A DNA stretch of 64,000 bases from Candidatus Woesearchaeota archaeon (GTDB lineage: Archaea > Nanobdellota > Nanobdellia > Woesearchaeales > GW2011-AR9). Under the pieces are notes generated by a model. It saw only the letters and a program-made list of their open reading frames with translations. It did not search any database and was not told the origin of the DNA. The position numbers were made by a program, and so were the translations under genes. Numbering within the stretch: position 1 is the first letter of the stretch; each line of letters starts with the position of its first letter. Where the stretch lies: contig JACPND010000007.1 of the NCBI GenBank assembly GCA_016185625.1, forward strand, positions 8,262 through 72,261. Reading direction: 5' to 3'. Below are positions 3,663 to 55,664 of the stretch, piece by piece.

Positions 3663-4841
3663 TTAAACAACATCAAAATGTGACACTTCGGGGGCTTCTG
3701 ATGCTCTGCCGGGCAACAGTGATGGCGTGTGTTCCGCGGGGGCCGCTGCACATTGAATAACTATCGACGCTCGCTTCCCCTGTGCCAGATTTTCTGCTTC
3801 TGTTTTGAGCGGTTCGAGTTGTCGACGCTGCGGTGTCGGTTCGAGTGCCCGGTACAAGGCGTTCAGTAAATTCTCGTCGGAAAAACCGCGATTGCGCACA
3901 GTATTCAGCAGTTGCTGTAGTGCATTCTGGTTGTACCACTGAACATCGGCGATCACCCGTTCTGCATCATTGGAACCGCTAAAAGCGCCCTTTCCCGTAA
4001 GCAATTCATAGGCCACAAGTCCAAGCTGGAAAATGTTAATCGCTGGAGTAAGCTGTTCTACCCTTACTTGCTCCGGTGATAAGTACATGAGCGTTCCGAT
4101 GATAGTCTCTTTTGGACGGTCAAGATCTTTTACGAGCCTGCTCCACTCAGTTGGGAACCCTTCCTGAAAAATCACGCCTTTCCGTCGCTGGGCAATGCCA
4201 AAATCAATAACTTTGGCGGTTCCGTGGCCGGGAACATCTTTTTTTTGATACAGGATATTTTCTGGTTTAACATCACGGTGGATGATGCCTTCCAATGCAC
4301 AATGTTTCAGTGCGGTGGCACTATCCGCAATAATGCGTCCAACATCGGCAACATCAATTCCCCCGCTTAGCATATCCGCTGAATTTTCGCTTTTAAAATA
4401 TTCTATTGCGATTTCCGAGAACAACTTGCCGTCAGCAACGTAAAACCGCTGACCGCGATAGCCAATCACGTGTGGATCGCCATTCAGGAGCTTCAACGCT
4501 TCCCGTTCGCGAATCACGGCACCCAGTCTAAACAGTTCCATATGTTTCAGTTGCAGCTGGTGCTCTCCTAATCTCAGGTTGTCTGCTTCTAGATAGGCGA
4601 TCTCGGCAGGCGGCACAACTCCTTCTCTGTACCCAGTGACACCTTCTCTATACCCAGTGACATTAAGAATTAACGACCGCTTTGCAGCGTATGATTCACC
4701 TGTCATCGGATTAAATACTTGATATACTCGACCCCATCCGCCCCGGCCGATTTCCTTCTCTTCGATGTATTTTAGAGCGTCCGGACTAGGCCAGTCCTCC
4801 GACGGCTGTTGCTGGTATGGAAAGGGTGTTTTTGTGTTCAT
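3663..4841 (-). CDS. Hanks-type Ser/Thr protein kinase
   Basis: IGRGGWGRVY (Gly loop), AAKR (VAIK-like), HRDVKPENIL (catalytic loop), DFGIA, SPE. It also contains a 21-bp tandem DNA repeat encoding VTGYREG twice. Confidence 0.85.
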   Translation of the reverse strand: MNTKTPFPYQQQPSEDWPSPDALKYIEEKEIGRGGWGRVYQVFNPMTGESYAAKRSLILNVTGYREGVTGYREGVVPPAEIAYLEADNLRLGEHQLQLKHMELFRLGAVIREREALKLLNGDPHVIGYRGQRFYVADGKLFSEIAIEYFKSENSADMLSGGIDVADVGRIIADSATALKHCALEGIIHRDVKPENILYQKKDVPGHGTAKVIDFGIAQRRKGVIFQEGFPTEWSRLVKDLDRPKETIIGTLMYLSPEQVRVEQLTPAINIFQLGLVAYELLTGKGAFSGSNDAERVIADVQWYNQNALQQLLNTVRNRGFSDENLLNALYRALEPTPQRRQLEPLKTEAENLAQGKRASIVIQCAAAPAEHTPSLLPGRASEAPEVSHFDVV

Positions 4842-9542: not shown

Positions 9543-9896
9543 ATGATGTCCCAAAAATGCATTTATTGTTCATCTAAAAATGTTGTTAAGAATGGTACAC
9601 GAAAACGAAAAGTAAGAATAAAAATTAGTTTTCTTTGCAGATCCTGCAAACGCCAGTTTGTTGAGCCGGATGGTTTTGAGAGAATGAGGCACGTTCCAAA
9701 AGTTATTGTAAGAGCAGTGCATCAACATATCGATGGATTCTCACTATTCAAAACACAATACCATCTATGGCAGCATGACGGGATTAAAGTTACTAGAAGA
9801 ACTATTGCTCAATGGACCAGAAAATATTCTCTTTTTTTAAAATCCAATACACCAATCAGTAAAGCCTCAACTCAAAGGACGCCAGCATTACGATGA
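9543..9896 (+). CDS. insA: IS1 InsA-like zinc-finger/HTH protein
   Basis: C-x2-C ... C-x2-C arrangement and VVKNGxxxxK, similar to IS1 InsA. Confidence 0.55.
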   Translation: MMSQKCIYCSSKNVVKNGTRKRKVRIKISFLCRSCKRQFVEPDGFERMRHVPKVIVRAVHQHIDGFSLFKTQYHLWQHDGIKVTRRTIAQWTRKYSLFLKSNTPISKASTQRTPALR

Positions 9897-10290: not shown

Positions 10291-10336
10291 CCAATACACT
10301 ATTTTAAAAGAATTACGCCATTATTTTCTGCAAAAC

Positions 10337-10574
10337 GGCACTATCCAAAAAGTGAGTGCAAGAAATGCGAAGAAAATCACATTTCTGCACAGAAATGGAG
10401 TAGCTTCTTCATTTCTTGTGATGGCAGGCCGTTCGCCTCGTGCTTTCCTTGCTGAAAGTATCTTTCAAAGAATGTTAGTCTTGTGGGAGAGAAAGCACCA
10501 ATGAATTCTCATTAACGATAGTCGTTCTCGGCTCACCTCTTGGCTGTGCCATCACTCACAAAACGGATAGTGCC
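10337..10574. mobile_element. MITE-like element, family 2 (subfamily A), TIR GGCACTATCC
   Basis: Terminal inverted repeats GGCACTATCC...GGATAGTGCC; 8-bp TSD tgcaaaac/tgcaaaat; the 5' ~95 bp are near-identical to the copy at 52019-52248; internal hairpins GCAAGAAATG/CATTTCTGC. Confidence 0.8.
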
Positions 10575-10630
10575 TGCAAAATACAAACCTTTAAAAACAA
10601 CCCCGCACTTCTTTTTGATTGGTGATATAG

Positions 10631-11680: not shown

Positions 11681-11725
11681 ACACTTATTAAAAGCTCTAT
11701 TACTATATAATGTTTTGGGTGATTC

Positions 11726-11888
11726 GGCACTGTCCGTTTTGTGAGTGATGTGCCAAGTGTGCAGTGAGGGAGAAGGCATAAGGCTGTTCGGAGGTTGGAT
11801 TAGCACTATAAACGCAGCGAGATGTTGCGAAATCACTACGATTAATCCACCCGAACTGCGGCACATCACTCGCTTTTTGGATAGTGCC
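11726..11888. mobile_element. MITE-like element, family 2 (subfamily B)
   Basis: TIRs GGCACTGTCC...GGATAGTGCC with an inner repeat AGTGATGTGCC; a perfect 8-bp TSD ggtgattc on both sides. Confidence 0.8.
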
Positions 11889-12171
11889 GGTGATTCGTAT
11901 TCACCAAAACTTTTAATTTCTTCTATCAAATTTTATTTTTCTATTTTGTACTAAAACACTGAAACTTTTAATTATAAACAATAAATTTTATTTTTACGTA
12001 ACACCTCTGTTCATAAAACTTTTAATCTTCTCTCATAATAAGTATAACTGGATATTCTAAAACTTTCAATCAAAGATAGAATTTACAAGACACATAATTC
12101 TAGAATATTTAATCTTCACTTAAATAAATTATCTCGTAACATTTATATAATTAAACTTCACTCAAAGAGCT

Positions 12172-14985: not shown

Positions 14986-15168
14986 GGGGGGTTTGATTAA
15001 CCTATTAATTTAGTTCAGCCCCCTCTAAGTAGGATACCAACAGACAGAAATGATTGATGAGATAGTTCTGTCTGTTGTATCTACAAAGGGCACAACAAAA
15101 AGATAAGATATTTGTGCCCTTTGGTAGACTTTGAATATCGATGAAAAAGAGGGTTATTCAAAGTTCTC
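14986..15168. mobile_element. MITE-like element, family 3 (TIR GGGTTTGA(A/T)TAACC), expanded copy with extra internal hairpins
   Basis: Its ends match the element nested at 47661-47746 (conserved core CTAAGTAGGA). The internal insert carries the 12-bp IR CAACAGACAGAA/TTCTGTCTGTTG and the 11-bp IR AAAGGGCACAA/TTGTGCCCTTT. Confidence 0.6.
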
Positions 15169-15324
15169 TGTACAAAAACATCCAGGTGATTCACTTCAGA
15201 ATATCTTTTTGTTTCTATTACCAACAAAATACCTGAAATATTAGTTATCTGTTTATAATACCAACAAAGTTGCTATTACCAACCAAAAAGCTTAAATATC
15301 ACTATTAAGATTGTAACACCAACA

Positions 15325-21460: not shown

Positions 21461-21626
21461 GTAATACTTCAGTATCCTGAAGTGAAGCACCACCATCTTC
21501 TCGCCTTCGATAGGGGAATTGAAAGCTGCCGTTCCCCGGAGGGGGCAATTCCCCCTTGGCAGCAAGATGTTACTCTTGTAAAGGCTCGACCAAGGATGGT
21601 GGTGCTTCACATTATTGAAGTATTAC
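21461..21626. mobile_element. MITE-like palindromic element, family 1, copy 3
   Basis: Same 12-bp TIRs; internal 14-bp stem GAAGCACCACCATC/GATGGTGGTGCTTC; 8-bp TSD acccaaca/gcccaaca. Confidence 0.75.
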
Positions 21627-21677
21627 GCCCAACAACAACCTTTATAAACAAAAAATAAAACCCTCCTCTGTTTCACC

Positions 21678-33532: not shown

Positions 33533-33610
33533 TCACTTACTATGTTTCGCTTCACTTCAGGATGCTGAAGAATCTTTGCACTGATTAGTTGAATTTTTAG
33601 GCATGATGTT

Positions 33611-47546: not shown

Positions 47547-47572
47547 GAATATTAAAATTTATTCATCATACG

Positions 47573-47828
47573 GTACTGTCCGTTTAGTGAGTGATGTGCC
47601 CATGAGTGCAGTGAGGGAGAAGGCATAAGGCTGTTCGGAGGTTGGATTAGCACTATAGAAGGGTTTGAATAACCTATCTTAATAGTTCAAACCCTTCTAA
47701 GTAGGACTTTGAATATTGATGAAAAGAATGGTTATTCAAAGTCCTCTATAAACGCAGCGAGATGTTGCGAAATCACTACGATTAATCCGCCCGAACTGCG
47801 GCACATCACTTACTTTTTGGATTGTGCC
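47573..47828. mobile_element. MITE-like element, family 2 (subfamily B), carrying a nested family 3 element (47661-47746)
   Basis: Same TIRs (GGTACTGTCC...GGATTGTGCC) and an internal sequence ~90% identical to 11726-11888, interrupted by an 86-bp family 3 element flanked by a CTATA duplication; outer TSD catcata/catcatc. Confidence 0.8.
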
Positions 47829-48258
47829 CATCATCATGCTCAAAACCACTTATTGTATCGCCTAGGTTCAGCCTTCGATATGGAAAGTTTTGGGAAGGAG
47901 TGCAATTCGAGGAGGTCAATGTCCGAGGCTCTCCTTCTAATGGACAATACTTCAGCGCTTTAGGATCCTGGATTGTCCTGCCATAGTTTTTTCCTTCTGT
48001 GCCTAGTAGTTCCAACGTAAATTCCACGGTCCCAATACTAGACGAATCTACGCCGTCAATATTCCAATAATCAATCCTAGCCGTGCTTAGCGTCATGCCC
48101 CGTCTGGCATTATTGCATTCAGTGGCATCGCACATTCCTTCCAATAAAGAAATCGGCTTATGGGACATCTTATGCTCATCTGCTACCTTCTGCTCATCTG
48201 CTACTGACAGTCCCTGTAGCTTCAGTTCCTGTAGGGTGAGATACTTGCGGTCGATCAT
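47806..48258 (-). CDS. hypothetical protein (150 aa)
   Basis: ORF only; the last codons extend into the MITE. Confidence 0.3.
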   Translation of the reverse strand: MIDRKYLTLQELKLQGLSVADEQKVADEHKMSHKPISLLEGMCDATECNNARRGMTLSTARIDYWNIDGVDSSSIGTVEFTLELLGTEGKNYGRTIQDPKALKYCPLEGEPRTLTSSNCTPSQNFPYRRLNLGDTISGFEHDDGHNPKSK

Positions 48259-52018: not shown

Positions 52019-52248
52019 ACTTACTCTAGGCACTATCAAAAAAGTGAGTGCAAGAAATGCGAAGAAAATCACATTTCTGCACAGAAATGAAGTAGCTTCT
52101 TCATTTCTTGTGATGGCAGGCCGTCTGACCAACCAAAAACCAGATCCCTTTTAGGAGGTCTGAATAGTTTTTGGCCATTAACTAGGGTATATTGTCCTTT
52201 TGGTCAGACACTTACTGGCCAAGCCTCACCTACAAAACGGATAGTGCC
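52019..52248. mobile_element. MITE-like element, family 2 (subfamily A)
   Basis: TIRs GGCACTATC...GGATAGTGCC; 8-bp TSD ttactcta/tcactcta; 5' ~95 bp near-identical to 10337-10430. Confidence 0.8.
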
Positions 52249-52272
52249 TCACTCTAGATAAAAATCCCTCTG

Positions 52273-55476: not shown

Positions 55477-55664
55477 ACATCACCTTTTTTAAGGGATAGA
55501 GCAAACTTAGATATATATACCTTTCTGAAAAAAGATGGGGGCAAACGTATCGTCACCTAGTACATCCGGGGTTGCCGTATCCACTTTTTGGATAGTGCCA
55601 TTAAACCGCAAACTATTTTAACATCCTTTATTTTCCTCAACTTCGAAAGAAAGCATAAGAAACC

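Follow-up and report, generated by a model that had tools for sequence, protein, structure and literature searches.

A family of miniature inverted-repeat elements in a Woesearchaeota genome and its likely partner insertion sequence

Several short, non-coding stretches of DNA with the same ends lie between the genes of a Candidatus Woesearchaeota (DPANN) MAG, and they raise the question of whether these sequences are transposable elements and, if so, which enzyme moves them. The genomes of DPANN archaea measure about 1 Mb, and very few of their mobile elements have been characterised. We analysed a 64-kb stretch of this MAG, here called the window, for which an initial annotation had proposed a MITE-like family of four full copies plus a solo end. 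Exact matches of four window proteins to NCBI proteins of a Candidatus Woesearchaeota MAG (HYX14 locus tags) identify the host as a DPANN archaeon. Reading of the four regions located all of them, as follows:

10337-10574, plus strand: MITE copy 1 (subfamily A), 238 bp, with the A5 end (IRL type) at the left
10329-10336 and 10575-10582: target-site duplication of copy 1, tgcaaaac on the left and tgcaaaat on the right, match 7/8
11726-11888, minus strand: MITE copy 2 (subfamily B), 163 bp, with the A5 end at the right
11718-11725 and 11889-11896: target-site duplication of copy 2, ggtgattc, perfect at 8/8
47572-47828, minus strand: MITE copy 3 (subfamily B), 257 bp, both outer 10-mers mutated by one change each
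47564-47571 and 47829-47836: target-site duplication of copy 3, catcatac and catcatca, match 6/8
52029-52248, plus strand: MITE copy 4 (subfamily A), 220 bp
52021-52028 and 52249-52256: target-site duplication of copy 4, ttactcta and tcactcta, match 7/8
55582-55599, minus strand: solo A5-type end GGCACTATCCAAAAAGTG, 18 nt, a truncated relic

Two of the boundaries first proposed had to be moved: copy 4 begins at 52029 and not at 52019, and the solo end, placed earlier at 55565-55593, is the 18-nt minus-strand sequence at 55582-55599. Apart from copy 3, with its mutated outer 10-mers, the full copies start with GGCACTRTCC and end with its reverse complement. With at most one mismatch this motif occurs 14 times in the window compared with 3.9 +/- 2.0 times in shuffled sequence, and 0/100 shuffles reach 14. 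A nhmmer profile of the ends, built from 29 elements, matched exactly the eight ends and the solo end in the window. An exact 10-mer at 4317 was considered as an additional solo end and dismissed as a chance occurrence, as it lies within an ORF and only 11 nt match. The same flank-element junctions are found in independent Logan assemblies from at least 7 runs, so that the copies are not artefacts of one assembly; all Logan contigs examined stop inside the repeats, 30-46 nt into the elements. The copies are small (163-257 bp), have no transposase coding capacity, carry terminal inverted repeats in all four cases, and form two pairs in the window, with related copies in other Woesearchaeota MAGs. 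The MITE-like architecture with 8-bp duplications was thus borne out, the window flanks matching at 8/8, 7/8, 7/8 and 6/8.

The terminal repeat has the same organisation in all four copies: an outer 10 bp (GGCACTRTCC), a 5-bp A/T tract and at least 7 bp of inner repeat, GTGAGTG, which is usually extended by AT(G). When placed in a common orientation, all elements read GGCACTATCC-AAAAA-GTGAGTGAT ... ATCACTCAC-AAAAC-GGATAGTGCC. At each end the 5-bp spacer has its A-rich sequence on one and the same strand, and it is therefore mismatched when the termini are read as an inverted repeat. A non-matching block had indeed been noticed within the repeat, but its length was given as 7 bp; it is a 5-bp strand-asymmetric A-tract, which is also present in the autonomous elements described below.

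We scanned one genome per prokaryotic species for GGCACTRTCCRWWWWGTGAGTG, with a chance expectation of about 4, and obtained 37 loci. The non-bacterial loci belong to Woesearchaeota, Nanoarchaeota and other DPANN MAGs, or to MAGs labelled "uncultured Methanosarcinales". Bacterial matches (L005, L014) were set aside as chance, the sequence beyond the match being unlike the element and L005 looking coding by eye. An occurrence in Methanosarcinales was likewise rejected for the one MAG tested, whose proteins have counterparts in a Woesearchaeota MAG (HYX12) that are identical or reach at least 90% identity, and we claim no cross-phylum distribution. Loci under this label are L009, L015, L028 and L033 (CAZNUS01), together with other TPA MAGs, and the label that was tested looks wrong. 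No viral contig contained a match to the terminal repeat.

At most loci a second, inverted end lies 150-360 bp away. Among 31 such short end pairs, including the four of the window, the 8-bp flanks match at 8/8 in 13 and at 7/8 in 7, and three of the poorer-matching pairs become good after a one-base shift of the boundary. A match of at least 7/8 was seen in 20/31 element pairs but in only 2/1200 offset control comparisons, which establishes a target-site duplication of 8 bp as a property of the family. The possibility that the flanks were coincidental and would dissolve on wider sampling was thus answered, and the search for further copies was also productive, with the same ends and 8-bp duplications recovered from related genomes. 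Beyond an A+T content of 68%, the 28 duplications share no target-site consensus. One MAG, KA24, contains at least 4 copies of its own MITE in addition to one end of an insertion sequence (IS), which lies at the edge of a contig and carries a transposase fragment.

The interiors are wholly different between the two proposed subfamilies, and the division itself (copies 1 and 4 versus copies 2 and 3) was upheld. Copies 2 and 3 are about 95% identical over their whole length, except for a 93-nt insertion in copy 3, while copies 1 and 4 have 96 nt in common at 98% identity. Part of this pattern comes from smaller elements nested inside the MITEs:

10359-10418, plus strand: 60-bp double-hairpin insert CAAGAAATG...CATTTCTTG nested in copy 1, with TG/TG flanks
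52051-52110: second occurrence of the 60-bp insert, in copy 4, at the same place as in copy 1
47658-47750, plus strand: insertion nested in copy 3, made of an 88-nt double-hairpin element (47658-47745) and a duplicated CTATA

The 60-bp insert splits the inner terminal repeat directly after GTGAGTG, and it is because copy 4 has the insert of copy 1 at the same place that the two copies share the 96-nt "subfamily A" block. A shared block of about 95 bp, as described initially, therefore exists, but it consists of the terminal repeat and a nested hairpin insert and is not a core. The insert is absent from canonical elements in other genomes. Copy 1 is otherwise a canonical element of about 175 bp, with a core 85% identical to a 175-bp element at locus L029 and recognisably akin to elements of six other MAGs; overall, MAGs of other species contain this core at 70-85% identity. 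In copy 4 a hairpin module, GTCTGACCAA...TTGGTCAGAC, takes the place of the interior. Copy 2 shows the unoccupied state of the site at which the small element inserted into copy 3, and this is the sole empty/filled pair that we found.

Some properties of the nested elements were recorded in passing. The 60-bp insert is made of two hairpins formed by AGAAATG/CATTTCT motifs and has 9-bp inverted ends; it occurs only inside copies 1 and 4, and neither the window nor the fetched loci yielded a copy standing alone. A relative of the 88-nt element lies near 15085-15169 of the window. The second hairpin of the 88-nt element is 88% identical to the one near 15127-15169, and the first has the same shape with another sequence.

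The short elements have moved as units, since copies 2 and 3 carry one core at different sites with different duplications, and since MAGs of other species also contain the copy 1 core. The alternative would be that the copies are immobile relics, each produced by an independent, in-place internal deletion of a full-length IS, and degenerate ends of this sort are indeed found, both in the window (55582-55599) and elsewhere as solo or truncated ends (L025, L026). Independent deletions, however, would not leave one and the same non-IS interior at sites that differ in position and in duplication, which is what is observed for copy 2 and copy 3, for copy 1 and copy 4, and for copy 1 and the L029 element, and we consider this origin extremely unlikely.

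We also looked at the position of the elements with respect to genes. As had been described, the insertions are intergenic and close to genes, with the exception of copy 3, which overlaps the last codons of an ORF:

47806-48258, minus strand: 150-aa ORF, its last 7 codons and stop inside copy 3, with no family hit

This putative gene now ends in ...HDDGHNPKSK*, of which GHNPKSK* is encoded by the element, and the duplicated flank suggests that before the insertion it would have ended in ...HDDE*. Copy 3 also lies 46 bp upstream of a DUF460 gene. Copy 1 ends 56 bp upstream of a PAC2 proteasome-chaperone gene, with a TATA-like AT-rich stretch, recognised by eye, between the two. A minus-strand ORF of 95 aa has copy 2 about 42 bp upstream of it, and the solo end is 66 bp upstream of an adenylate kinase gene. 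Copy 4 occupies a divergent intergenic region, 74 bp from an NFACT-like gene and 24 bp (52249-52272) from the start codon of a DUF255/thioredoxin gene. The annotated DUF255 start looks right, as Pfam coverage of the protein begins at residue 7; with this start and a gap of 24 bp, the promoter would be within copy 4 or very close to it, and copy 4 has probably displaced the promoter region of the gene. The local effects of the family are small, namely a changed C-terminus in one ORF and, at one gene, an insertion 24 bp before the start codon.

For all copies the predicted fold is a long hairpin interrupted by a 5x5 A/A internal loop, with z values between -4.6 and -8.0 (-8.0 for copy 1, -4.6 for copy 2 and -7.3 for copy 4). 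Strong hairpins, positions 24-74 bp from gene starts and a copy 1 core conserved at 70-85% across the MAGs of several species are features that could also belong to host-functional structured elements (regulatory DNA hairpins or small RNAs, for example) which selection maintains and in which the transposon features are secondary. Against this, no Rfam family matches the elements, and an alignment of nine canonical elements gives a covariation term of -0.23 kcal/mol, with pairs changed on both sides only in or next to the terminal repeats. The interiors are completely unlike between the subfamilies, and the 8-bp duplications and the interruption by other elements are hallmarks of insertion and not of conserved genes. 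We judge a host function of this kind very unlikely, and a reading of the elements as structured RNA was dropped on the Rfam result and on the lack of covariation beyond the repeats.

The initial annotation had also proposed a search for a full-length element with the same ends and a transposase. No gene of the transposase family described here was detected in the 64-kb window by tblastn; such elements were found in related MAGs and in metagenomes. The clearest one, L019 (CAZRMW010000038.1), is an 1824-bp contig made of one complete element with perfect 24-bp repeats, GGCACTGTCCGAAAAGTGAGTGAT, and one ORF of 436 aa (432 aa in databases). Contigs encoding the identical transposase place the element at at least 2 sites, with perfect 8-bp duplications CACACACC (L134) and TTAGTATG (L137). 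A metagenome scan yielded 80 loci, in 61 of which both ends were found, 1334-1923 bp apart; all of these full-length elements but one, which is probably truncated, measure 1556-1923 bp. The consensus of their ends is GGCACnnTnn+5+nTGAGTGAT. Duplications among the 54 full-length elements with both flanks match at 8/8 in 7 and at 7/8 in 1, two more elements match after a one-base shift, and the remainder have no duplications, which we attribute to a probable chimeric assembly across identical copies.

Two further observations concern L019 itself. L019-type elements (L019, L134-L139) contain an additional 85-aa CxxC ORF, divergent from the transposase gene (27-284 of L019, minus strand), which is absent from the 1568-bp elements and has only sub-threshold matches to zinc-binding families. 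L019 was binned with a Candidatus Saccharibacteria MAG, and both of its ends recur without a mismatch at contig edges (L004, L037) of a Woesearchaeota MAG; the placement in the Saccharibacteria bin is probably a binning error.

Comparison of the ends connects the window MITEs with these elements. The window ends are identical to the L019 repeat at 20-21/24 positions, and almost all mismatches are confined to the A/T spacer, to position 7 and to the point at which the 60-bp insert enters the repeat. Most full-length IS elements have an A-rich spacer upstream of the transposase gene, and the reverse complement of the other end has a T-rich one. By this arrangement, the asymmetry of the MITE spacer is inherited from the insertion sequence and is not peculiar to MITEs. 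An origin of the MITE interiors from the IS was considered and found no support: blastn against the sampled insertion sequences revealed no similarity beyond the terminal repeats of about 24-26 bp. The L019-type insertion sequence is likely to be the autonomous partner of the window MITEs, and an autonomous copy presumably is, or was, present in this genome.

We consider it very probable that the MITEs depend for their movement on a transposase supplied in trans by the L019-type insertion sequence family. Each MITE consists of two IS ends (GGCACTRTCC, the 5-bp A/T tract and GTGAGTGAT) placed around 100-200 bp of non-coding hairpin DNA. The 432-aa DDE transposase of a related IS of 1.6-1.8 kb would act on them in trans, binding the inner repeat and cleaving at the outer GGCAC end, with the A-tract contributing through DNA shape. 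Insertion would take place with cuts staggered by 8 bp, and repair of the stagger would leave the 8-bp duplications. We infer this division of labour within the terminal repeat (inner binding, outer cleavage, A-tract shape) and, from sequence comparison, the identity of the protein family that would act on the MITEs.

A different transposase family missing from our sample, such as IS1595, ISL3 or IS6, could in principle mobilise these MITEs, the likeness to L019 being then partly coincidence or convergence. IS1595, ISL3 and IS6 are families that make 8-bp duplications. The window holds no partner element, an N-terminal fragment of an IS1/IS6-type transposase lies 440 bp from copy 1, and the MITE interiors are unrelated to the sampled autonomous elements, all of which would suit such an explanation. 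It has to account, however, for the agreement of the window ends with L019, in which the few differences are concentrated in the spacer, at position 7 and at the insert point, for a strand-asymmetric spacer and an 8-bp duplication common to MITEs and IS, and for the KA24 MAG, which holds both MITEs and an IS end with a transposase fragment. We regard mobilisation by such another family as unlikely, and retain the L019-type transposase as the probable agent.

The window contains traces of other mobile elements. A different MITE-like family, with GTAATACTTCAGC terminal repeats, is present at 2367-2714 and 21461-21627, with a 26-nt fragment at about 33548-33573; two tandem copies have an 8-bp GTTTTTGA junction in common and a third copy is flanked by cccaac. 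This is presumably the family that the initial annotation listed as its first. A 117-aa ORF at 9543-9896 (plus strand), 440 bp from copy 1, has an N-terminal zinc-binding domain of IS1/IS1595 type (NF050000, 31 bits, above cutoff) and weak matches to IS6 and IS1 models, and looks like what is left of a different, truncated insertion sequence.

The view that these elements are active or recently active was not sustained. Between copies the sequence has diverged by 2-5%, decay has left 1-2 mismatches in three of the four duplications and the ends of copy 3 are mutated; the window has no transposase gene of the family. Logan contigs of at least 7 runs gave filled junctions throughout, with no empty sites and no presence-absence polymorphism.

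The transposase of the candidate partner was then characterised by its homologues. We retrieved 913 of them, mostly of 432 aa and mostly on contigs of 1.5-2 kb, a size typical of repeats that assemble on their own. An alignment of 30 members shows an N-terminal Cys/His cluster and the invariant residues D153 (in YDEQHP), D210/D212 (TDCDRRYP), C232/H235 (CLLH) and E377 (NNAIEN), of which D153, D210/D212 and E377 are candidate catalytic residues. In an AlphaFold model (pLDDT 69.5) beta-strands and helices surround the candidate catalytic residues, the Asp residues are on or next to strands and a long helical insertion precedes the Glu, an arrangement compatible with a DDE/RNase H core, short of proof. 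Foldseek against the PDB returned only RNase H-fold matches, which were insignificant. The Pfam model DDE_Tnp_IS66 (PF03050) is matched by 23/30 members, below cutoff; 4/10 divergent relatives exceed the cutoff (23.4-32.6 bits), over the C-terminal part of the model only. The NCBIfam IS66 model NF033517 scores 10-26 bits against a cutoff of 180, and none of the NCBIfam ISNCY models match at E <= 1. When the family profile was compared with 1.84 billion representatives it reached only 445 clusters at E <= 0.001, and on this account the family appears compact and separate from IS66 proper. By these profile matches the protein can be described as a putative DDE enzyme, distantly IS66-like, without a name in Pfam and NCBIfam.

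Our search of the literature found no description of the MITE family or of its partner IS. The closest described architecture is the ISBst12 group of IS66, which has a single ORF of about 430-450 aa and 8-bp duplications, as the partner IS does. ISDge4, of the IS66 family and ISBst12 group, has a single ORF encoding a 449-aa transposase, an 8-bp direct repeat and GTGACT/GTAACT terminal repeats (PMC12898284). The partner resembles IS66 in its 8-bp target duplication, in the weak but recurrent matches of its transposase to the C-terminal part of DDE_Tnp_IS66 and in residues 232-235 of that protein, CLLH, a C-x2-H motif located after the second Asp and before the Glu. IS66 transposases reportedly carry a CwAH motif, which this CLLH resembles, and IS66 terminal repeats are said to begin with GTAA(GCG). 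Canonical IS66 elements have accessory tnpA/tnpB genes, which the ISBst12 group does not have. The partner IS differs from canonical IS66 in having a single 432-aa ORF and no accessory tnpA/tnpB, to which the 85-aa CxxC ORF of L019-type elements is unrelated, and from IS66 as a whole in that its ends start with GGCAC, and not GTAA/GTGA, in all of at least 61 elements, and in being restricted so far to DPANN archaea. We did not file it as an IS66 member because the GGCAC ends do not fit, and it may deserve a family or subgroup of its own. ISNCY offers no alternative home: this category ("not classified yet") is a holding category and not a family. One homologue of the partner transposase bears NCBI's name "ISNCY family transposase, partial [Nanoarchaeota archaeon]".

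A broader reading can be offered tentatively, although we hold it rather doubtful as a whole: the MITEs might be the non-autonomous arm of an undescribed, DPANN-only (Woesearchaeota/Nanoarchaeota) IS family, kin to IS66 at the superfamily level and recognisable by GGCAC...GTGAGTGAT ends with an asymmetric A-tract, and the core of about 175 bp might persist by horizontal spread among tiny-genome symbionts or through co-option of copies next to gene starts. The analysis ties a specific DPANN MITE family, with several miniature elements nested in one another, to a probable transposase, and defines its ends and its 8-bp duplication. This provides an annotation rule usable for DPANN genomes, where such elements break assemblies, and draws attention to a transposase family that has no name in curated libraries.

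MITEs as a kind are well known, and the window family leaves the concept unchanged. A bulk survey of MITEs that included archaeal and DPANN genomes reported a Woesearchaea genome with 105 MITEs per Mb (PMC11602168). Like other prokaryotic MITEs, the window copies are non-coding elements of 160-260 bp with inverted repeats and a fixed duplication length, they are present in multiple copies with an intergenic bias, they fold into hairpins, and their ends are in common with an autonomous IS. Unlike them, the window family carries a strand-asymmetric A-tract in its ends, and its copies are mosaics into which other miniature hairpin elements have inserted.
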